Positions 8,696 to 58,193 of a stretch of DNA of 64,000 bases are shown here, piece after piece (within the stretch, counting starts at the first letter, position 1; each line of letters starts with the position of its first letter). The position numbers and the translations under genes were made by a program. The notes below the pieces were generated by a model. That model saw only the letters and a program-made list of their open reading frames with translations, did not search any database and was not told the DNA's origin. This DNA is from an uncultured Candidatus Saccharibacteria bacterium (GTDB lineage: Bacteria; Patescibacteriota; Minisyncoccia; Minisyncoccales; PEYH01): NCBI GenBank assembly GCA_964616145.1, contig CAZTRD010000001.1, forward strand, positions 68,024-132,023, in the 5' to 3' direction.

Positions 8696-8697
8696 AA

Positions 8698-9078
8698 GTG
8701 GAAACCCCGACGGAGCCTATCAACGTCGGGGTACTGCTATTCGCTGGGAAGTATAGCTACCAGCGCGTGAACTCTAGATCTGGCATCAGGTTTCCCTGCT
8801 ATCCCGAACGGTCCCTGTCACCCGCACAGGTTGCACTTCACGCGGACCCGTCTAGGCGTTCCAGATCTATAGGGATGGTATCCTGTACTTTCCTTTGGGG
8901 GTTACCTCCGTCGAGTTCTCGACGGGTTTTTGAGTGAATCATCCCAGGTCCTTTCGGGTCGAGGGACTATCCTCGCATATACCCATCGGTTACAGAATGA
9001 TAGGGCCATCTGTTAAATCTCAATATAAGATCTAACAACTAGCCCTATCGCCATCCTTGAATTCGTATATCAATGTGC
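8698..9078 (-). ncRNA. ~380-nt GC-rich structured RNA, unclassified. It may be a divergent RNase P RNA.
   Basis: Own minus-strand promoter and terminator hairpin (8705-8712/8724-8731, then UUUCCACUUUU on the minus strand). Many GC helices. RNase P-like strings on the minus strand: AAAGGAAAGUAC (8896-8885), CUGGAACGCCUAG, AAGUGCAAC (8838-8830) and GGGUGACAGGG. I could not trace a P4/CR-V pairing. Confidence 0.55.
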
Positions 9079-13596: not shown

Positions 13597-14411
13597 TATT
13601 TGATACTCATGCCCATGTTAATTTCAGGGTTTTTGACAATGATAGGGACGAAGTAATCAAGAAATGCCTGGATAGAGGTATTTCTATCATTAATGTTGGA
13701 AGCAATTTTAATACGTCTGAAATAGCTGTTGATCTGGCTAATCAATATCAAGAAGTATATGCTTCTGTTGGTTTGCATCCGATTCACGTAGATAAGAGCA
13801 TTTTAAGAGTGAAAGATGAAGAAGAGGGTATTAATGAAGAATCCAGTTTTGATTATAACAAATACAAAGAATTAGCTAGGGATAGAAAAGTGGTGGCAAT
13901 TGGAGAAACAGGACTTGATTACTATTACCGTCCCAAAACTAAAACCAAATTAGCAGAATTCAAGGCAAAACAAAAAGAAGTTTTGATAAAACAAGTTGAA
14001 TTAGCAGAAGAATTAAATCTTCCTATCATTTTTCATTGCCGAATGGCTCATGATGATTTGATAGAGTTCTTAAAGGATAAAAAGCTGAGAGGAGTAATAC
14101 ATTGCTTTACCGGGGATTTAAATCAAGCTAAAGAATATATACGAATGGGATACTATTTAGGATTTAATGGAATTATCTTTAAATTGAATCTAGATGAAAT
14201 TATCAAAGAAATCCCGATAGATAGAATTCTTTTAGAAACAGATTGTCCGTATCTTACTCCGTCCGGATATGCTACAGATAGAAATGATCCGATAGGGGTG
14301 GAGTATGTGGCAAAAAGGGTAGCAGAGATTAAAAAGGTAGATCTGACAGAACTTATTAACAAGACGAATGATAATGCGATAAACCTATTCGGATTGGACA
14401 AAATACTATAA
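13593..14411 (+). CDS. tatD: TatD family metal-dependent hydrolase/DNase
   Basis: MIFDTHAHVNF, GETGLDYY, HCR/HCFTG and ETDCPYL motifs. ATGA overlap with metG. Confidence 0.88.
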   Translation: MIFDTHAHVNFRVFDNDRDEVIKKCLDRGISIINVGSNFNTSEIAVDLANQYQEVYASVGLHPIHVDKSILRVKDEEEGINEESSFDYNKYKELARDRKVVAIGETGLDYYYRPKTKTKLAEFKAKQKEVLIKQVELAEELNLPIIFHCRMAHDDLIEFLKDKKLRGVIHCFTGDLNQAKEYIRMGYYLGFNGIIFKLNLDEIIKEIPIDRILLETDCPYLTPSGYATDRNDPIGVEYVAKRVAEIKKVDLTELINKTNDNAINLFGLDKIL

Positions 14412-14456
14412 TTGTGATATCATATAATTACCTGACACCATAAGGAGGTGATTCTA

Positions 14457-14561
14457 ATGAAATGGTGTCCTGAGAAAAGGAAAGCGTTCCCGATCCTTGA
14501 GAGAGTCGGGAATGCGCTCGTTCGTCAGTTCGCCCCTCTCGCTGGCCGGCCTTTGGGCTAG
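14457..14561 (+). CDS. Candidate 34-aa small ORF inside a GC-rich structured island (MKWCPEKRKAFPILERVGNALVRQFAPLAGRPLG)
   Basis: Perfect RBS AAGGAGGTGA 6 nt upstream of the ATG, presented in the loop of hairpin GACACCAT/ATGGTGTC. TATAAT at 14423-14428. The unit could instead be a non-coding RNA. Confidence 0.3.
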   Translation: MKWCPEKRKAFPILERVGNALVRQFAPLAGRPLG

Positions 14562-14592
14562 CCAGCGAGAGGGCATACAACCTAACTATTAT

Positions 14593-14618
14593 AAACAGGT
14601 CTTCCCTGTTTTTGTTTT
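14593..14618 (+). terminator. Intrinsic terminator of the 14.4-kb GC-rich unit
   Basis: AAACAGG-TCTTC-CCTGTTT followed by TTGTTTT. Confidence 0.7.
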
Positions 14619-14629
14619 GGGATATACTA

Positions 14630-14657
14630 TTGACAAGATTATTTCTATAAGTAGGAT
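14630..14657 (+). promoter_or_regulatory. Promoter of the tRNA-like pair (TTGACA-16 nt-TAGGAT)
   Basis: TATTGACAAGATT is identical to the -35 context of the ncRNA promoter at 9114. The -10 fits TAnnnT and lies 11 nt before the tRNA 5' end. Confidence 0.5.
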
Positions 14658-14668
14658 TATAGATATCA

Positions 14669-14758
14669 GCCGGGGTGGTGGAAAAGGGCAGACACGCACA
14701 AGTCTTCACGATTGTGTGAGGATGATCCCTCGTGTAGGTTCAAATCCTACCCTCGGCA
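14669..14758 (+). tRNA. Type II (Leu-like) tRNA-like gene with a 10-nt anticodon loop GUCUUCACGA and no encoded CCA
   Basis: Acceptor GCCGGGG/CCTCGGC plus A73. D arm GTG-GAAAAGGGCAGA-CAC. Anticodon stem CACAA/TTGTG (14697-14701/14712-14716). Long variable arm GAGG-ATGATC-CCTC. T arm GTAGG-TTCAAAT-CCTAC. It aligns arm for arm with tRNA-Leu(CAA) at 25554-25640 except in the loop. Confidence 0.6.
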
Positions 14759-14777: not shown

Positions 14778-14847
14778 GGTGACGTAGCTCAATTGGTAGA
14801 GCACTGGGATAAATCCCGGGGGTGGGGTTCGATTCCTCCCGTCACCT
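14778..14847 (+). tRNA. Class I tRNA-like gene (Phe-like body) with a shortened 6-nt (or 4-nt) anticodon loop AUAAAU and no encoded CCA
   Basis: Acceptor GGTGACG/CGTCACC. D arm GCTC-AATTGGTA-GAGC. Stem CTGGG/CCCGG (14804-14808/14815-14819) encloses only ATAAAT. T arm TGGGG-TTCGATT-CCTCC. Total body is 69 nt. Confidence 0.55.
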
Positions 14848-29070: not shown

Positions 29071-29200
29071 AATTTCTTTATGTTTCTATTATATCAAAAC
29101 ATGGATTGACTACAAAATGCAATTGTTATAACATTTCTTTTAGTAGGCAAGAATGGTTCTTGCCAATTCGCAAACTTGCGAGAAAGGGTGGGTGAAAGTT

Positions 29201-29605
29201 ATGGAAGAAAAGAGCGTTCTTCAGTTGTATTCGATTCTCCTGCTCCATCCTGAAGTTCTGGATCCGCTGAAGCACTTGGGGCTGCCTCGGGATATCAAGC
29301 CCGAAGATCTGATCAGCTGCCTTGAGCTGTATCAGAGGATAGGGAAGTCCTATCAAGAACTTGTTCCTGAGGGAGATGACGGGGAGAGCGAAAGATTGAG
29401 GCTAGTTCACGATCTTCTCGAAGAGCTCTCAGGATGTTTCACCGAGCTGTCTGGCAACTTCGGGCCAAGGCCTATTCACAGGATCCGAAGAGCCATCCAG
29501 TGGTGGTGGCATCTTCATCTTCACGAGAATCTCCCCGGAGCGAAGATCGACGATCCCTACTTCATGGGGCCCAAGCATCTCAAACTGGATCCGGAGCGGG
29601 GATAG
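29201..29605 (+). CDS. GC-rich hypothetical protein (134 aa, acidic, helical-looking), island gene
   Basis: Preceded by TTGACT (29106-29111) with a TAACAT/TATAAC -10, two leader hairpins, and an SD-like AAAGGGTGGGTGA 5 nt before the ATG. Followed by a strong terminator. Composition differs sharply from flanking genes. Confidence 0.5.
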   Translation: MEEKSVLQLYSILLLHPEVLDPLKHLGLPRDIKPEDLISCLELYQRIGKSYQELVPEGDDGESERLRLVHDLLEELSGCFTELSGNFGPRPIHRIRRAIQWWWHLHLHENLPGAKIDDPYFMGPKHLKLDPERG

Positions 29606-29626
29606 GAGCAGTTCGCGAGTTTGGAC

Positions 29627-29668
29627 GGGCTGCTGTTCGACGGACCAGCAGCCCACTTCTTTTGTTTG
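29627..29668 (+). terminator. Intrinsic terminator of the 29-kb island gene
   Basis: GGGCTGCTG-10 nt-CAGCAGCCC followed by ACTTCTTTTGTTTG. Confidence 0.7.
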
Positions 29669-29684
29669 CTAAATATCCAAAAGG

Positions 29685-30254
29685 ATGTATAATAACAAAG
29701 ACAATATGAATAAATTTCTTCAGATAGTTTGGGAATTAGTAAAAATTGGAGCAATAGCCTTGCTGATTGTAATACCAATCAGGCAATTTGTTTTCCAACC
29801 CTTTATCGTCAGGGGAGCAAGCATGGAGCCCAACTTTGAAGACTTTGATTACTTGATTATCAATGAGATAAGTTACAGATTTGATGACCCAGACAGAGGA
29901 GACGTTGTCATATTTGATAGTCCGATGAATTCATCCCAGAGATTCATAAAAAGAATAATTGGTTTGCCTGGAGAAACAGTCACAATCCAGTCAGGAGAAA
30001 TTGCCATCAAAACAGAAAGCAAGACAATTACTTTGAATGAAGATATGTATTTGCCAACCAGTACCGTGACATCTAATTCCGGTCCTACTGTTCTTGGAGA
30101 AGATGAATATTTTGTCATGGGAGACAATAGACAATATTCATATGATTCTAGAATATTCGGAGCCGTTAAAAGAAATACAATAATAGGAAAAGTGGCTTTA
30201 AGATTTTCTATAGGTGGAGTTTTCGCCAGAAATCTTTTCCAAATAGCTCAATAA
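29685..30254 (+). CDS. lepB: Signal peptidase I
   Basis: N-terminal TM segment, catalytic Ser box GASMEPNF, Lys box KRIIGLPGE, GDNRQYSYDSR. Confidence 0.9.
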   Translation: MYNNKDNMNKFLQIVWELVKIGAIALLIVIPIRQFVFQPFIVRGASMEPNFEDFDYLIINEISYRFDDPDRGDVVIFDSPMNSSQRFIKRIIGLPGETVTIQSGEIAIKTESKTITLNEDMYLPTSTVTSNSGPTVLGEDEYFVMGDNRQYSYDSRIFGAVKRNTIIGKVALRFSIGGVFARNLFQIAQ

Positions 30255-36702: not shown

Positions 36703-37388
36703 TATATGGAGGATTGCAAAAATTAACATTGATAGATTTCCCGGGGAAATTAGCAGCTACAATATTTCTCAGCGGGTGCAATTTTCGTTGCCCATTCTGC
36801 TACAACCCGGATCTAGTTTTGCCAGAGAAAATTTCTTCTTTTAATGAGGAAGAGATATTTTCTTTCCTGAACAAAAGAAAAGGAATGCTTGATGGTGTTG
36901 TTATTTGCGGGGGAGAGCCAACGATACACAAAGATCTTATGCAGCTTGCCAAAAGAATCAAGGAAATGGGATTTGCTGTAAAACTAGATACAAATGGCTC
37001 TGATCCGGAGATTCTTGATAATCTGATTTCCAGGAATTTGATTGACTATATTGCCATGGATGTCAAAGCTCCAAGAGAAAAATATGAAGCCCTGGCAGGC
37101 AAAGGGATTGATTTACAAAGGATAGAGGAAAGTATAGGTATCTTAAAAGAAGAAAGAACAGATTATGAATTTAGGACTACTGTTATTCCTCTGCTTTTAG
37201 AAAAAGAGGATATTCTTTCCATTACTCAATGGATTAAACCGGCTAAAAGGTATTTCTTGCAGCAATTCAGAGCAGAGAATAATCTGGATCCGGAATTTCA
37301 GAAATTGAATCCGTATTCCATGGAATATTTGATAGATATAAAAGAAGCAATTGCCCCGTTTTTTGATGTATGCCAAGTCAGAAAATAA
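36699..37388 (+). CDS. nrdG: Anaerobic ribonucleotide reductase activating protein (radical SAM)
   Basis: CNFRCPFCYN radical-SAM cluster motif, VVICGGEPT. ATGA overlap with nrdD. Confidence 0.9.
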   Translation: MIYGGLQKLTLIDFPGKLAATIFLSGCNFRCPFCYNPDLVLPEKISSFNEEEIFSFLNKRKGMLDGVVICGGEPTIHKDLMQLAKRIKEMGFAVKLDTNGSDPEILDNLISRNLIDYIAMDVKAPREKYEALAGKGIDLQRIEESIGILKEERTDYEFRTTVIPLLLEKEDILSITQWIKPAKRYFLQQFRAENNLDPEFQKLNPYSMEYLIDIKEAIAPFFDVCQVRK

Positions 37389-37389
37389 T

Positions 37390-38790
37390 ATGAGGCCGGA
37401 ACAGATTTTTCTTTTTAGTTTAATTTCTGTATTTCTGGGAATAGTTTGCAGAATATTCATTCCCTTTCCTATTATTCTGGTAATAGGATTTTTGTTTTCT
37501 TTGGCCCATTTTTCCGTTAAAAAAGAAAAATGGATAATTCTCCTTTTCCTTTTACTTGTTTTGGGTTTTGTAAGATGTGGCATGGTTCTTCAAAAAAATA
37601 TCATATATTCCAACCAAGAAGTTAAAGTTACAGGGAAAATATTAGAAGATCCGATTGTTTTAGGAACATATGGGAGGGCAAAAATTAAAACAGAATATAT
37701 TGAAAACAGAAAAATCAAGAATGATATTATTGTATACTTTGATAACCCAAAAGATTATTCCAGATATGATTTGGTAGAATTCAAGGGAATCCTGGAAAAA
37801 CCAAATGATTACTATCAAAAGCAGGGGATAACGGCAACGATTGAAACAGATGATTTAAAGATAATTAAATCTTCTGTTTTTTCCTTTTTTACAAAACAGA
37901 AGAACAGAATGAGAGAGATAATAGATGAGAAAATGTCTATTCCTTTCAGTTCAATTCTATCTGCAATGATTTTAGGAGATAATTATAGCTTGCCTCAGGA
38001 TTTAAAAGAGAGCTTGAATAATAGCGGACTGCGTCACATTATTTCCATTTCCGGAACACATATAACAATAATCATGAATCTTTTGATGGGTTTTCTGATA
38101 TTTTCTGGGATTTCAAGAAAAAAATCAGGAATTATTACTCTTTTAATAATTTTTCTGTATATTTTCTTCATTGGGTTCTACGCTCCAGCAATCAGAGCAG
38201 CCATTATGGGGGCCAGTATAATTCTTGCTCAATTATTCGGCCGGCTTCCGGATTCTTTCAGATTTCTTTTGTTTGCCGGAGTATTAATGCTTTTGATAAA
38301 CCCGTTTTTGTTTTTTGATCCTGGATTTTGGTTATCATTCACAGCTACTTGCGGAATGATATTCTTTTCCAATTATTTTACAGAAAGGATAAAGAAAATA
38401 TTAAAGAATAAAGAAATCAGTCAGATATTAGGGATAACATTTGCTGCGCAAATATTTTCTTTACCTGTTTTGTTGTATTATTTCGGCTCAACCTCCTTTT
38501 TAGCTTTTCTTTCCAATTTGTTAATCTCTCCGATAATTCCTTTTGTTATCTCTTTTGGATTTATTGCCTTAATATTGAGTTTTATATTTTTCCCCTTAGG
38601 AACAATATTTTTTGTGATAATTCAGATTCTCTTGTCGTATCTTATATTTATCTCTAATATTTTCTCCAAAATATTCTTTTTATCAATAAATTTCTTTCCA
38701 AACATATTTATCGTTTTAAGCACCTATGTGCTTTTAATGATATGGGCTAGGCATATTAAGGAGGAAGAGAAGATTTCTTTCCTCCCCTGA
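37390..38790 (+). CDS. comEC: ComEC/Rec2-family competence channel protein (no beta-lactamase domain)
   Basis: Multi-TM protein with the SGLRHIISISGTHIT motif. Start at ATG 37390, just after the nrdG stop. Confidence 0.8.
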   Translation: MRPEQIFLFSLISVFLGIVCRIFIPFPIILVIGFLFSLAHFSVKKEKWIILLFLLLVLGFVRCGMVLQKNIIYSNQEVKVTGKILEDPIVLGTYGRAKIKTEYIENRKIKNDIIVYFDNPKDYSRYDLVEFKGILEKPNDYYQKQGITATIETDDLKIIKSSVFSFFTKQKNRMREIIDEKMSIPFSSILSAMILGDNYSLPQDLKESLNNSGLRHIISISGTHITIIMNLLMGFLIFSGISRKKSGIITLLIIFLYIFFIGFYAPAIRAAIMGASIILAQLFGRLPDSFRFLLFAGVLMLLINPFLFFDPGFWLSFTATCGMIFFSNYFTERIKKILKNKEISQILGITFAAQIFSLPVLLYYFGSTSFLAFLSNLLISPIIPFVISFGFIALILSFIFFPLGTIFFVIIQILLSYLIFISNIFSKIFFLSINFFPNIFIVLSTYVLLMIWARHIKEEEKISFLP

Positions 38791-38792
38791 GA

Positions 38793-38821
38793 TTGACGAA
38801 TACAATATAGTATGCTATGGT
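38793..38821 (+). promoter_or_regulatory. Promoter of the 38.8-kb GC-rich island (TTGACG-17 nt-TATGGT)
   Basis: Good -35/-10 spacing immediately after the comEC stop. Confidence 0.5.
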
Positions 38822-38852
38822 ATGGATACATGGGGGAGAGGAGGATGGTATC

Positions 38853-39056
38853 ATGCCCAGAGGACAAGGAAACAAATCCAAGCCGGGCCCCAAGAAGCCG
38901 CCCGACAAGCTATTGATCTACATCCCGCAGTCGAAGGTTGCGCGGCAACCTGTCGAGCGGCTGATGAAGATCGGCGCGAAAAAGGATCGGTCCGTCAGCT
39001 ACCTCGTCGTCGAGGCCATTCTGCAGTACCTCGACCGTGAGGAGAACAAGTCGTAG
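38853..39056 (+). CDS. Ribbon-helix-helix (CopG/Arc-like) DNA-binding protein, 67 aa, GC-rich island gene
   Basis: SD GAGGAGGA 7 nt before the ATG. Lys/Pro-rich tail, then a beta-strand (LLIYIP) and two helices (VERLMKIGAKK, SVSYLVVEAILQYLDRE). Confidence 0.65.
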   Translation: MPRGQGNKSKPGPKKPPDKLLIYIPQSKVARQPVERLMKIGAKKDRSVSYLVVEAILQYLDREENKS

Positions 39057-39088
39057 CTCGTGAGAGCTACAAGAAAGGAGGTGGTCTC

Positions 39089-39109
39089 ATGAAGACGGGG
39101 CCGCCGTAA
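39089..39109 (+). CDS. Candidate 6-codon mini-ORF MKTGPP-stop
   Basis: Perfect RBS AAAGGAGGTG 6 nt upstream. It ends in Pro-Pro-stop. It lies between two hairpins and the island terminator. Confidence 0.25.
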   Translation: MKTGPP

Positions 39110-39140
39110 CAAGCTGTACATTGGAGAGATCAGGCTCTCC

Positions 39141-39186
39141 GGGGGACCGGTGCCCGCATGCACTTCAGGTCCCCCTCATCTTTTTT
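39141..39186 (+). terminator. Intrinsic terminator of the 38.8-kb island
   Basis: GGGGGACC-19 nt-GGTCCCCC followed by TCATCTTTTTT. Confidence 0.7.
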
Positions 39187-39230
39187 AAATCAAGAAACTC
39201 TGATAGAATTCAATATATTAAACAATAACA

Positions 39231-39608
39231 ATGGAATCATTGTTTTCTTTTTCTAAATTAAGGCAAAGTATTAGAATTGCCCTTTTTGGGATCAAAAAGG
39301 CCTTTAAAAAAGAGCAGACATTTAGATTTGAAGCAATATATGGAATAGTTACCATTATTCTTGCTTTTATCTTTTCTTTGAATGCAATAGAATTTTCTAT
39401 TGTCATGGCTTGTATAGGAATGACTTTGGGTTTCGAATTATTGAATTCCCAGGTTGAAAAGGTTGTAGATGTAGTAAAACCGGAATTTAGTTCTCAAATT
39501 AGGACAATAAAAGATTTATCCGCTGGGGCGGTTTTAATAGTTGTGGTTGCTTCAATATTTGTCGGGATTTTAATATTTCTTCCGCACTTCCTAGATTTCT
39601 TAAAGTAA
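39231..39608 (+). CDS. dgkA: Diacylglycerol/undecaprenol kinase (DgkA family)
   Basis: Three TM segments, E..N...E..VD motif (GFELLNSQVEKVVDVV), KDLSAGAVL. Confidence 0.82.
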   Translation: MESLFSFSKLRQSIRIALFGIKKAFKKEQTFRFEAIYGIVTIILAFIFSLNAIEFSIVMACIGMTLGFELLNSQVEKVVDVVKPEFSSQIRTIKDLSAGAVLIVVVASIFVGILIFLPHFLDFLK

Positions 39609-39638
39609 TTATGATAATATCATTGCTAACCATATATT

Positions 39639-40202
39639 ATGCAAGATCAAGATGATAGACAATTGATAATCAGCTATCTTCAAGGAAATGAACAATCCTT
39701 GGAGATTCTAATTGCAAAATATCTAAAGATTATCTATGGATTTATATATGGGTATGTAAACGATCAGGCCATAGCCCAAGATATTACCCAAGAAACATTT
39801 ATCAAGGTTTGGAAAAATATTCAGAAATTTGATAAAGAAAAAAAATTCAAGTCCTGGATTTTTGCCATTGCTAAAAATACAGCCCTAGATTATCTTAAAA
39901 GGAAAAATGCTATTCCATTTTCCGTTTTTGAAAACGAAGAAGGAAAAAATGCTTTTCTGGAGAGTTTGGCAGACAATTCCTTGCTACAGAACAAAATGGC
40001 TGAACGACTTGATACTAAAGATGTTATCGCTTTAGCAATGAAGAGATTGTCTTTTAAATACCGCAGAGTTCTATCCCTATACTACAATAAACATTTTAAC
40101 TTCAGAGAAATATCTGAAATACTAGGCGAGTCGTTAAATACGATTAAAAGCCGTCATAGAAGAGGATTAGTAATGTTAAAAGATATCATCTCAGAACAAT
40201 AA
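39639..40202 (+). CDS. ECF-type RNA polymerase sigma-70 family factor
   Basis: Region 2 (DITQETFIKVWKNI, W...IA.N...D) and region 4 HTH (FREISEILGESLNTIKSRHRRG). Confidence 0.88.
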   Translation: MQDQDDRQLIISYLQGNEQSLEILIAKYLKIIYGFIYGYVNDQAIAQDITQETFIKVWKNIQKFDKEKKFKSWIFAIAKNTALDYLKRKNAIPFSVFENEEGKNAFLESLADNSLLQNKMAERLDTKDVIALAMKRLSFKYRRVLSLYYNKHFNFREISEILGESLNTIKSRHRRGLVMLKDIISEQ

Positions 40203-49335: not shown

Positions 49336-49337
49336 GG

Positions 49338-49360
49338 AAAAGGGGTGGTTGGCCCCTTTT
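49338..49360. terminator. Bidirectional intrinsic terminator (clpB on +, island unit 3 on -)
   Basis: AAAGGGG-TGGTTGG-CCCCTTTT with A/T runs on both sides. Confidence 0.7.
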
Positions 49361-49425
49361 CTGTTTGAGAGGTCGGTATGTACGAGCTTGTTAATCCCTG
49401 CACCTCCTTTAAAGGTACTGCTTGC

Positions 49426-49536
49426 CTAACGCCCAGAACGCTGACAAACGATAAGCCAGGAAGTTCGTGGTCTTGGTAAGATGTGCCACCAATTCCATCT
49501 TCTTGGCCGCCGCTGCCTGCTTCTGGTCCTTTTCAT
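49426..49536 (-). CDS. Candidate 36-aa Arg/Trp-rich small ORF (MKRTRSRQRRPRRWNWWHILPRPRTSWLIVCQRSGR), island unit 3
   Basis: Perfect RBS AAGGAGGG (49550-49543) 7 nt before ATG 49536-49534. TATAAT at 49570-49565. An overlapping frame also encodes MELVAHLTKTTNFLAYRLSAFWALGKQYL. The coding status of both is unproven. Confidence 0.25.
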   Translation of the reverse strand: MKRTRSRQRRPRRWNWWHILPRPRTSWLIVCQRSGR

Positions 49537-49586
49537 CTGTGTCCCTCCTTACGGGTAGGTGTTTATTATATATCATAGTTTCTAGT

Positions 49587-49795
49587 AAAAAACAAAGAAA
49601 CCGACCAGAGAATGGTCGGGAAAGAGCATGTGTCAAGGATGGAGACCGCGGTGGTATCGTTAGTTCTCCTCCGCGGCCTCACATCCTCTCCGCAAGGACA
49701 CAAGCAAACCTTGCGGTCTAACAACCCCTCGCCTCTTTCCCTCTCGCCCGTGAGAGGGTCATCTAGTGGAGGGGTAGGGTCTTACTTGTTGTTAT
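49587..49795 (-). ncRNA. GC-rich structured transcript, ~200 nt, unclassified (island unit 2)
   Basis: Minus-strand hairpins CCCTCTC-ACGGGC-GAGAGGG, CCGCAAGG-11 nt-CCTTGCGG and GGCCGCGG-19 nt-CCGCGGTC nested in AGGATG/CATCCT. It ends in terminator CCGACCA-TTCTC-TGGTCGG-TTTCTTTGTTTTTT (49620-49587). The 5' end is uncertain. Confidence 0.45.
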
Positions 49796-49825
49796 CTTCT
49801 ACCTACTTCTATGATTTGTCAATGT

Positions 49826-50006
49826 TTTAAAAGCAAAAGAGCCGACCACGAATGTGATCGGTTCTCGGTTGGCGCCCGTAAGGGCAAAGAACATGAGCGG
49901 ATAGGTCCGCCACCTGGAGGAGCTGCCGAAGCAGCCCCTCCTAAGTGGTTTAGTCGTGCGCCCCCGCACGGCCAACTCCCCTCTCTGCCATAGAGAAAGG
50001 AAGGTC
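49826..50006 (-). ncRNA. GC-rich structured transcript, ~180 nt, unclassified (island unit 1)
   Basis: Multi-stem junction closed by GTTGGC/GCCAAC. It contains GTGCG-GGGG-CGCAC, an 11-bp GGAGGGGCTGC-TTCG-GCAGCTCCTCC, CGGA-CCTA-TCCG and GCCC-TTAC-GGGC. Terminator CCGATCAC-ATTC-GTGGTCGG-CTCTTTTGCTTTT (49861-49826). Confidence 0.5.
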
Positions 50007-50012
50007 ATTATT

Positions 50013-57831: not shown

Positions 57832-58006
57832 ATTGATCGACCTATATAGAGGATCCCGGCATCATTTGTGCATAGTAACTAAATATGGCAAAAGGAAGGA
57901 TAGGGCCTGGAGATATAATGATATTTGTCATCCTTCAATAAAGTACCATTTCGTTGTACTATGATGGTGTTTTTTGCTTAGGTTGAAGTAAAGAGAAAGG
58001 AGAAGA

Positions 58007-58117
58007 ATGGACCTGGATCTCAATCTCGCGATGGATGGTTGGTGGGCTTTGATCAGGGTTTCCCTGTTCTTTGCCTCTGCCTGGCTGGGTTGGAAGGAGG
58101 TGAACTACCGCTCCTGA
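58007..58117 (+). CDS. Candidate 36-aa hydrophobic small protein (MDLDLNLAMDGWWALIRVSLFFASAWLGWKEVNYRS), GC-rich island
   Basis: RBS AAAGGAGA 5 nt upstream. One predicted TM helix flanked by Trp residues. A strong terminator follows directly. Confidence 0.35.
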   Translation: MDLDLNLAMDGWWALIRVSLFFASAWLGWKEVNYRS

Positions 58118-58133
58118 CATCTATTGCTTCACC

Positions 58134-58166
58134 GAGAAAGGCTACCGCTGGTAGCCCTTCTCTTTT
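58134..58166 (+). terminator. Intrinsic terminator of the 58-kb island
   Basis: GAGAAAGGCTACC-GCT-GGTAGCCCTTCTC followed by TTTT. Confidence 0.7.
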
Positions 58167-58193
58167 AATATAAAAAGGACATTCATTTGTCCT
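58166..58193 (-). terminator. Intrinsic terminator of the minus-strand gene 58274-58813
   Basis: Minus strand reads AGGACA-AATGAA-TGTCCT followed by TTTTTATATT. Confidence 0.6.

Follow-up and report, generated by a model that had tools for sequence, protein, structure and literature searches.

The described systems that come closest to the locus studied here are of several kinds, namely the CopG/Arc/MetJ repressors, the morons of phages, the minigenes of the lambda bar type, peptides that carry proline right before a stop codon, and the STAB-SD elements. Minigenes of the lambda bar type and other start-stop mini-open reading frames (mini-ORFs) combine a strong Shine-Dalgarno (SD) sequence with 2–6 codons, hold or recycle ribosomes, and promote peptidyl-tRNA drop-off. 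Moreover, a C-terminal Pro-Pro before the stop codon was found in Escherichia coli to arrest termination in all contexts tested, leading to A-site mRNA cleavage and ssrA tagging (PMC3834316), and RNase J1 is blocked by ribosomes initiating at a strong SD (PMC5737220). Here, we analysed a GC-rich islet of ~400 bases (positions 38793–39186) in a 64-kb stretch of contig CAZTRD010000001.1, referred to below as the window, in which a promoter, the gene of a small ribbon-helix-helix (RHH) protein and a 3′ tail with an SD-led mini-ORF and a terminator lie between comEC and dgkA.

The islet has a GC content of 55%, compared with 36.4% for the window, and its local GC peak reaches 61% (the standard deviation of 150-nt windows is 5.7%). 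The GC-rich island described by a first-pass annotation is therefore real, and every element listed there was recovered at its place, including the complete promoter-to-terminator unit after comEC. We consider it likely that the islet as a whole is a self-contained, horizontally acquired transcription unit of moron-like character, occupying a hot spot of recombination that lies between comEC and dgkA in one clade of Paceibacterota, and that its RHH gene is foreign and derives from Bipolaricaulota-type bacteria or their phages. The insertion would be read here from composition and phylogeny only.

The RHH gene and its origin

The islet is framed by two native genes. On its left, comEC (37351–38790, forward strand; Pfam Competence PF03772, E 4e-55) is AT-rich, and its TGA stop codon (38788–38790) is separated by only 2 nt from the −35 box of the islet; on its right, dgkA (39231–39608, forward strand; Pfam DAGK_prokar PF01219, E 5e-29) has a GC content at third codon positions (GC3) of 0.28 and is followed by a gene for an extracytoplasmic function (ECF)-type sigma factor. 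The islet promoter (38793–38821, forward strand), which a consensus scan found as it had been proposed, consists of a −35 box TTGACG (38793–38798), a 17-nt spacer, and an extended −10 element TG-C-TATGGT, with TG at 38813–38814 and TATGGT at 38816–38821; TTGAC and TGnTAnnnT are unchanged in six related cassettes. The strong SD reported ahead of the 67-aa ORF is GAGAGGAGGA (38836–38845, forward strand), read from the sequence 7 nt ahead of the ATG at 38853, and the RHH gene itself (38853–39056, forward strand) closes with a TAG codon at 39054–39056. With a GC3 of 0.81 and a GC content at second positions (GC2) of 0.35, the composition of this ORF is a coding signature with foreign codon usage. 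In addition, an SD is present ahead of every cassette gene in the relatives. The native genes of the window, counted as 50 ORFs of at least 100 aa, all lack a 5-nt SD in the 25 nt before their start codons, and the strong SD-ATG pairs seen between genes are confined to GC-rich islets. Judged from these counts, SD-led translation signals are foreign to the host genome.

The identification of the 67-aa product as an RHH protein is borne out by several concordant lines, each of them weak, which together suggest that it has this fold. The window protein scores 12.3 bits (E 0.17) against Pfam RHH_1, below the cut-off of 20.5; the same profile matches 25 of 50 family members (best E 4e-4), in concordance with the other profile matches. 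A phmmer search of the PDB returned ORF56 of pRN1 and the RHH domain of PutA, and the family profile returned the DNA-binding domain of the antitoxin CopA_SO (E 0.011) and again ORF56 (E 0.054). The AlphaFold2 (AF2) model predicts an extended segment (residues 19–25) and helices at 32–44 and 48–66, with a helix pLDDT (the per-residue confidence of the model) of 76–84, so that the strand-helix-helix order is present within ~45 residues; the model is of a monomer, in which the strand cannot pair. Finally, all 15 leading Foldseek matches in the PDB are known RHH proteins (StnY, CopA_SO, CdbA, AmrZ, MatP, HicB, ParD, CopG and Arc), with target-normalised template-modelling scores of 0.27–0.71 and weak E-values of 0.6–5.

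A database search gave 49 homologues of the window protein, down to E 5e-11, nearly all exactly 57 aa long and sharing the near-invariant block DRSxNYLVVEAILQYLDREE. The family is narrow, since its profile finds just 369 clusters among 1.84 billion representative proteins, and the window protein is a new addition to the RHH superfamily, uncharacterised like its family. Compared with the 57-aa family proteins, the window protein carries a 10-aa Lys/Pro/Gly-rich insertion after residue 2 (~38859–38888), part of which is a 15-nt tandem repeat (38880–38894 and 38895–38909). The ratio of nonsynonymous to synonymous substitution rates (dN/dS) of the window gene is 0.14–0.27 in pairwise comparisons, compared with 0.005–0.1 for the Bipolaricaulota copies among themselves, so that purifying selection acts on the gene, if in a somewhat relaxed form. 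Note that public assemblies of this species (L092–L094; the loci we compared are given by such numbers) have, as the gene called at this position, an alternative-frame ORF of 72 aa (38822–39040, forward strand), which is probably spurious, homology and dN/dS favoring the RHH frame. Because gene callers chose this 72-aa frame, the exact RHH product is absent from public records. No Rfam match was obtained in the islet, neither by an E-value scan of 38000–40000 nor by a gathering-threshold scan of the whole window, and ARAGORN found no tRNA or tmRNA in it. A reading of the islet as structured RNA only is ruled out by the protein homologues and dN/dS.

The range of the family points to its source. 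A scan of GTDB with one genome per species gave 232 coding matches, and the best 80 of these 232 come almost all from Bipolaricaulota (Acetothermia) or from metagenome-assembled genomes (MAGs) labelled ‘Thermotogae’, often with 2–5 copies per genome; two of these 80 are Paceibacterota. In Bipolaricaulota, the gene is solitary and occurs in many differing contexts, and no recurrent neighbor or toxin was seen near family genes in 96 loci. As for a plasmid or cultured-phage origin, tblastn gave no match in PLSDB or INPHARED. A member of the family is carried by 12 IMG/VR loci, in five of which (L174, L175, L177, L182 and L184) it lies ~0.2–1.4 kb from a long gene of terminase type, confirmed as terminase large subunit by PHROGs in L174, L177 and L182 and assigned by N-terminal similarity alone in L175 and L184; these phage-like contigs have 51–57% GC, and one further IMG/VR contig with a family member carries a primase-polymerase.

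The direction of transfer is suggested by composition. The GC content of the RHH gene is 0.45–0.60 in Bipolaricaulota, at or below the local background of 0.5–0.7, and 0.53–0.58 in Paceibacterota vs surroundings of 0.32–0.36; transfer would therefore have run into the lineage of the candidate phyla radiation (CPR). The foreign origin also shows in the 57–58% GC and the GC3 of 0.81–0.85 of the gene, compared with 32–35% GC and a GC3 of 0.26–0.32 in the flanks. Over residues 18–67, the window protein shares 88% identity with a protein of Bipolaricaulota (L010), the synonymous divergence (dS) being 0.52, and the window gene is no farther from this Bipolaricaulota copy than from any CPR allele.

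Cassette exchange at the comEC-dgkA junction

The cassette was found in related metagenomes, at the comEC-dgkA junction of related Paceibacterota. DgkA of the window is 79%, 77% and 74% identical to proteins of Candidatus Paceibacterota MAGs, and a DgkA-based search for further syntenic loci was informative for L090, L096 and L099. The synteny nrdD-nrdG-comEC is common to the window, L006, L049, L090 and L096, and the order comEC-RHH-rubredoxin-dgkA is seen in L006/L007/L008, L049, L096 and L099. The islets of L006/L007/L008 and L049 encode the 57-aa RHH protein and a 52-aa rubredoxin (NCBIfam RubredRD, E 2e-23), and in L099 the 3′ end of the rubredoxin gene and the tail are visible. L096 contains two adjacent cassettes, one with a promoter and a 31-codon ORF and the other with a promoter, RHH and rubredoxin, and L090 resembles the window in having RHH without rubredoxin. 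Note that the extra cassette of L096 (2010–2410 of that locus, upstream of RHH-rubredoxin) consists of the promoter, the 31-codon ORF without family match and, behind it, a mini-ORF encoding MATGPP, a hairpin of 15 bp and a terminator; the tail module is therefore not tied to the RHH gene.

No remnant of the rubredoxin gene was detected in the window by tblastn, and the window allele appears to have lost it, which would make RHH an orphan regulator here. None of 89 loci has a rubredoxin gene adjoining RHH in Bipolaricaulota, the Bipolaricaulota loci being covered by at most 3–4 kb per side; since none of the Bipolaricaulota loci has one, the RHH-rubredoxin pairing would have been assembled in or for the CPR locus.

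Divergence of the cassettes disagrees with that of their flanks, and therefore the cassette has been exchanged horizontally. As an example, L006 and L049 are 97% identical in comEC and 94% in dgkA (dgkA dS 0.18), and only 74% in RHH and 75% in rubredoxin (RHH dS 1.11). Conversely, the window and L090 have flanks 74–78% identical (dgkA dS 1.88, saturated) and RHH genes 84% identical (dS 0.46); the pair L006 and L090 is congruent, with a dS of 0.46 for both genes. The divergent block between L006 and L049 extends from just after TAATGTATG, in the region of the −10 element and transcription start, to just before ATATA-ATG-GGC-CCG-TAG. These breakpoints suggest that the promoter on the left and the mini-ORF, box, hairpin and terminator on the right are sequences of the locus, and that the interior was swapped. 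In addition, a 579-nt contig (L009, ERZ27248895) equals window positions 38672–39037 over its first 366 nt and beyond them follows a Bipolaricaulota RHH locus (L032), at 94.7% identity over 209 nt. The junction falls inside a shared stretch of 14–24 nt, and the contig is either a true recombinant between phyla or a chimeric assembly.

Within the window, the islet is single-copy, and a repeated or mobile copy was rejected. With respect to flanking repeats, the sole border repeat is a 13/15 match of borderline significance between GAATACAATATAGTA (38798) and GAATTCAATATATTA (39206), and apart from it no mobility genes or clear repeats were found at the islet borders. The earlier description of a relic or miniature mobile regulatory module came close to what is seen, namely a foreign unit, horizontally exchanged, from which the rubredoxin gene was lost.

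Under the explanation that we favor, the sigma-70-type extended −10 promoter would drive the SD-led gene of a small RHH DNA-binding protein, and in sister lineages the same promoter would drive RHH together with rubredoxin, a cargo lost in the window and L090. The RHH dimer would insert its N-terminal β-strand into an operator overlapping its own promoter and repress its own transcription; by analogy with the family, such autorepression is most likely. Downstream, dgkA has its own putative extended −10 element, TGATAGAAT (39201–39209, forward strand), read from the sequence in an AT-rich 44-nt spacer (39187–39230) which shows 84–96% identity among the window, L006, L049 and L090. An operator common to the RHH and dgkA promoters was tried and rejected as borderline, since in the window 7 of 500 shuffles do as well, and three of the five loci show no significant similarity.

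Several observations weigh against this explanation. An empty comEC-dgkA site was not found among the relatives, and two more distant DgkA relatives (L097 and L098) have other neighbors, without islet or synteny. All alleles have a GC3 of 0.69–0.85 vs a host GC3 of 0.26–0.32, and the persistence of this high GC3 at dS values of 0.5–1.5 is hard to reconcile with a long stay in AT-rich genomes; an explanation needs either repeated import or selection that acts on synonymous sites. No operator was identified and no operator repeat could be defined; binding of the RHH protein to DNA is putative. Moreover, the window protein departs from the family at three near-invariant positions (E15P, S21L in the DNA-reading β-strand, and N49S), and these changes, together with the 10-aa insertion, may mean a changed specificity or activity. 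Finally, about half of Parcubacteria 16S rRNAs are without an anti-SD (PMC9297842), which weakens the case for SD use in the host; since, in addition, the host 16S rRNA gene lies outside the 64-kb window, the function of SDs in this host is uncertain.

The 3′ tail, its mini-ORF and other islets

Beyond the RHH gene, the tail contains all the remaining elements of the first-pass annotation, starting with the predicted hairpin TAGCTC-GTGA-GAGCTA (39054–39069, forward strand), whose stem takes in the RHH stop codon. Its equivalent in L090 is TAGCC-GAAA-GGCTA, with a compensatory fifth pair, and in L099 it sits after rubredoxin as TAGCCGC-AAA-GCGGCTA. The second ribosome-binding site is an SD-like box, AAAGGAGGTG (39074–39083, forward strand), whose only other exact copy in the window lies at 49401–49410 on the minus strand, and which is followed by the mini-ORF found by pattern search, ATG AAG ACG GGG CCG CCG TAA (39089–39109, forward strand), encoding MKTGPP. 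After its stop codon comes a box, AAGCTGTACATT (39111–39122, forward strand), semi-conserved in all tails as AGCAG(T/C)AC(A/C)TT, with its best window matches at 39111–39122 and at 49412–49423 on the minus strand. A second predicted hairpin, GGAGAG-ATCAGG-CTCTCC (39123–39140, forward strand), has analogues in L006 (GAGAA...TTCTC) and in L096a, the first cassette of L096 (GGAGAGGCTAG...CTAGCCTCTCC). The unit closes with a predicted intrinsic terminator (39141–39186, forward strand), GC-rich as noted earlier, with the stem GGGGGACC/GGTCCCCC, a large loop in which TGCCCGCAYG is conserved, and the T-run TCATCTTTTTT; its stem begins 31 nt past the end of the mini-ORF. Terminator stems vary among relatives and yet stay complementary, and the loop is kept in L006, L049 and L099. 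The whole tail (39050–39186) has a folding energy of −64.8 kcal/mol (z = −5.5), matched by none of 200 shuffles.

The mini-ORF is conserved at the 3′ ends of the related cassettes. The window reads AAAGGAGGTGGTCTC-ATG AAG ACG GGG CCG CCG TAA, L096a reads GAGGAGGTGGTAGAGATC-ATG GCT ACG GGG CCG CCG TAG (MATGPP), and L090 reads AAAGGAGGTGGCCT-ATG CCG CCC TAG (MPP); the peptide MGP is encoded by L006 and L049, (A/G)GGAGGA(C/T)(G/A)ATATA-ATG GGC CCG TAG, by L099, GGGGGGTGATATC-ATG GGC CCG TAG, and by the second cassette of L096 (L096b), AAGGAGGGATAACC-ATG GGA CCG TAA. All seven tails, in five distinct forms, thus keep a strong SD box, an SD spacing of 6–11 nt, ATG, 0–3 codons, Gly/Pro-Pro and a stop codon, with Pro or Pro-Pro as the last residue(s) of every peptide. 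Variation is limited to a free second codon (K/A), synonymous changes (GGC/GGA, CCG/CCC and TAG/TAA) and one in-frame 9-nt indel, and the remaining tail is only 52–63% identical in all comparisons but that of the close relatives L006 and L049 (74%). The pattern SD-ATG-(0–5 codons)-(GP or PP)-stop occurs once in the 64-kb window, both strands included; it is absent from ~450 kb of GC-rich Bipolaricaulota loci and was otherwise found only in homologous Paceibacterota islets. Because it is conserved in the tails and absent from the Bipolaricaulota loci and the remainder of the window, the mini-ORF is neither a chance occurrence nor a decaying relic. On these comparisons, it belongs to the locus, on the right flank, and not to the RHH gene. 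A Paceibacterota RHH gene at another locus (L038, gene GC 0.42) is followed by a plain terminator, without mini-ORF. In viral contigs, the strict pattern of the MGP-type (type B) tails had no match, and a loose pattern of the type carried by the window (type A) had 72, which are uninformative since this pattern is loose and not frame-constrained. In the nearest rubredoxins outside the clade (70% identity), the terminator directly follows the gene, which neither supports nor contradicts an origin of the mini-ORF as a remnant of a gene that followed rubredoxin in a donor.

In the mechanism proposed, the transcript would end in a 3′ module formed by the stop-codon hairpin, the SD, the ORF of 3–6 codons, the box, the hairpin and the terminator; the mini-ORF would be translated, and ribosome pausing at the Pro-stop would influence the fate of the mRNA 3′ end. 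An arrest might cut off the protective terminator, or it might hold the ribosome as a block to exonucleases. We infer both translation with slow termination and the effect on the mRNA by analogy, and this is the least certain step of the explanation, which we would propose only tentatively. A bolder version, in which the SD-led Gly/Pro-Pro-stop mini-ORF would be a dedicated translated 3′ mark of foreign, GC-rich, SD-dependent cassettes and the arrested ribosome would decide the fate of the transcript, either through A-site cleavage with removal of the terminator or through protection of a stable 3′ fragment, appears improbable to us. The same holds for its second part, in which the junction adjoining comEC may be a hot spot that repeatedly captures DNA of Bipolaricaulota or their phages.

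It is quite conceivable, our judgement leaning somewhat the other way, that the mini-ORF has no function as an ORF, and is either a structural RNA element or a recombination scar left by a duplicated initiation region, its Gly/Pro codons being a by-product of GC-rich pairing. Indeed, GGUGGUCUC (39080–39088) of the window can by prediction pair with GGGGCCGCC (39097–39105), leaving the AUG in the loop, and the SD flank is complementary to the Pro-Pro codons; L090 (GGUGGC/GCCGCC) and L096a could form this pairing too, that is, GGUGG(Y) with (R)CCGCC in type-A tails, and CCCA or GGUCCA can pair with UGGG(CC) in type-B tails. However, the helices proposed for type A are not those proposed for type B, and L006 has none of them. 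The ATG, the SD spacing, the short open frame and the Pro-stop are kept in all seven tails though the surrounding tail diverged, and the synonymous Gly, Pro and stop changes and the in-frame indel are what coding constraint would predict. Against this, the window and the distant L096a share 14 identical nt in the type-A mini-ORF (ACGGGGCCGCCGTA), despite a dgkA dS above 1, which makes conservation at the level of nucleotides or of a hairpin an equally good reading. As for a scar, the initiation region of the mini-ORF resembles that of the RHH gene at the same locus (AGGAGGATGGTATCATG / AGGAGGTGGTCTCATG in the window and AAAGGAGGGCGATCATG / AAAGGAGGACGATATAATG in L006), and the right breakpoint of the swap falls within it. 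The possible absence of an anti-SD in the lineage (PMC9297842) points the same way, as does a tail-like stretch at 49.4 kb (minus strand), which keeps the SD-like box AAAGGAGGTG and the post-stop box TAACAAGCTCGTACAT without any mini-ORF.

The attenuation leader suggested by the first-pass annotation, with read-through into dgkA or, in L096, into the next cassette, is very unlikely. Its position would suit this role, since the mini-ORF stands 13–60 nt upstream of the hairpin/terminator that precedes a gene, in the window and six related tails, and Pro codons act as sensors in the leaders mgtL and mgtP, which counts for this explanation. That annotation saw nothing downstream to regulate, and this was mistaken, because dgkA starts 45 nt past the islet terminator; dgkA, however, has its own promoter in the conserved spacer described above, none of the seven predicted folds contains a mutually exclusive antiterminator helix, and three codons are too few for sensing codon supply. 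That the RHH gene is an antitoxin orphaned by the decay of a type II toxin-antitoxin pair is highly improbable as well: its best named match is NCBIfam antitoxin_RelB_like (NF048017, E 2e-4 to 2e-5), and the Foldseek and PDB matches include the antitoxin DNA-binding domains of CopA_SO, ParD and HicB, yet the NF048017 score is 21.6 bits against a cut-off of 50, the protein ends 1–3 residues past helix 2 and so has no C-terminal toxin-neutralising tail, and the partner gene in Paceibacterota encodes rubredoxin. The remark that no toxin-sized partner is present holds for the window and extends to ~100 family loci, where neither a toxin nor, in 96 of them, a conserved neighbor was found, and the antitoxin reading itself fails. 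An assembly or binning artefact, in which Bipolaricaulota reads were joined into a CPR contig, can be dismissed almost entirely, since, although both organisms co-occur in the same sample series and L009 is a window/Bipolaricaulota hybrid, three independent assemblies (L092, L093 and L094) contain the identical islet between the same flanks, five other lineages have a homologous islet at this junction, and the promoter and tail are CPR-specific and absent from Bipolaricaulota loci.

The window contains other GC-rich islets, and the sequence modules common to them are just weak leads (AAAGGAGGTG with the box at 49.4 kb, and a 14-mer). An intergenic islet at 8696–9030 (at most 59% GC) has no ORF, many helices and no Rfam match even at E≤1, and may be an unrecognised structured RNA. 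At 14408–14645, just upstream of two tRNA genes, TAAGGAGGTG is followed after 5 nt by the ATG of a 34-codon ORF (14457), which overlaps a perfect 13-bp hairpin (CCCTCTCGCTGGC/GCCAGCGAGAGGG); the 14-mer GGCTAGCCAGCGAG is common to this islet and the hairpin of the first cassette of L096, a weak lead. The two tRNA genes (14669–14758 and 14778–14847) were given odd anticodons by ARAGORN, a 4-base ‘ttca’ and a 2-base ‘aa’, and both are recognised by Rfam. A second candidate for a foreign gene is the islet at 29141–29709, which has the SD-like GGGTGGGTGA, an ORF of 134 aa (29201–29605) unmatched in Pfam, and a terminator of its own. On the minus strand, 49336–50010 contains three tandem GC-rich mini-units without Rfam match, each ending, as judged by eye, in a terminator-like hairpin and a T-run, and two of the three have a TTGACA-type −35 box; the first has an Arg/Trp-rich ORF of 36 aa (49536–49429) behind AAGGAGGG, and its tail carries AAGCAGTACCTT, AAAGGAGGTG and TAACAAGCTCGTACAT, the same boxes as the 39-kb tail, without mini-ORF. 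Finally, the islet at 57990–58170 consists of an SD, a hydrophobic ORF of 36 aa (MDLDLNLAMDGWWALIRVSLFFASAWLGWKEVNYRS) and a terminator, a layout that resembles a small membrane peptide or type I toxin.

Comparison with known systems

Altogether, the locus would provide a clear case of cross-phylum transfer into a CPR genome; its junction, adjoining the DNA-uptake gene comEC, is fixed, and alleles swap there faster than the flanks diverge. It bears on who unculturable episymbionts live with and how they gain genes, and repeated capture, if true, would hint at a physical association of this CPR lineage with Bipolaricaulota. Strong SDs in a few GC-rich islets of an otherwise SD-less genome bear on how foreign genes are translated there, and public gene calls for this species probably annotate the wrong reading frame at the RHH gene. 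If translated, the conserved Pro-stop mini-ORF at the 3′ ends of the cassettes would be a new kind of 3′ cis-element, and thus a new class of bacterial cis-regulator in the 3′ untranslated region (UTR).

Like the minigenes of the lambda bar type, the mini-ORF of the tail combines a strong SD with a very short ORF; such elements lie in 5′ regions or are incidental, whereas the islet mini-ORF lies in a 3′ tail, and we know of no lambda bar-type element that forms a conserved 3′-terminal module of gene cassettes. With respect to stabilising sequences, the box GAAAGGAGG is presumably the STAB-SD sequence of the cry3A element. In protection of the STAB-SD kind (Agaisse and Lereclus 1996, as cited in PMC5737220; Bacillus subtilis hbs), a bound 30S subunit or ribosome would block 5′-to-3′ decay, from a position in the 5′ UTR that protects the downstream coding region; in contrast, the islet box has just a short tail and the terminator downstream. 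The Pro-Pro or Gly-Pro that stands right before UAA/UAG in all seven tails resembles YbeL-PP of E. coli (PMC3834316) and the Pro24-stop of TnaC. However, YbeL-PP is the end of a real protein and TnaC is a 24-aa leader that needs the exit tunnel and a ligand, whereas 3–6 residues in a 3′ UTR are concerned here, and arrest on so short a chain may not occur. A described counterpart of a conserved 3′-terminal SD with a Pro-stop mini-ORF was not found in the literature.

The islet protein itself compares best with the CopG/Arc/MetJ repressors (pMV158 CopG, P22 Arc and pRN1 ORF56), with which it shares a core of ~45 aa, the strand-helix-helix order, and its best matches; its gene likewise stands alone right behind its own promoter, and the family occurs on phage contigs. 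Unlike these repressors, the islet family stays below Pfam and NCBIfam thresholds, is narrow, and is concentrated in Bipolaricaulota. As a unit, the islet resembles phage morons in having its own promoter and terminator, an atypical GC content, foreign translation signals, and a phylogeny incongruent with that of its flanks. It differs from them in that it lies between housekeeping genes, outside any prophage, at a junction that is occupied in every relative seen, and in that its promoter and 3′ tail are conserved parts of the locus, between which the interior is swapped.

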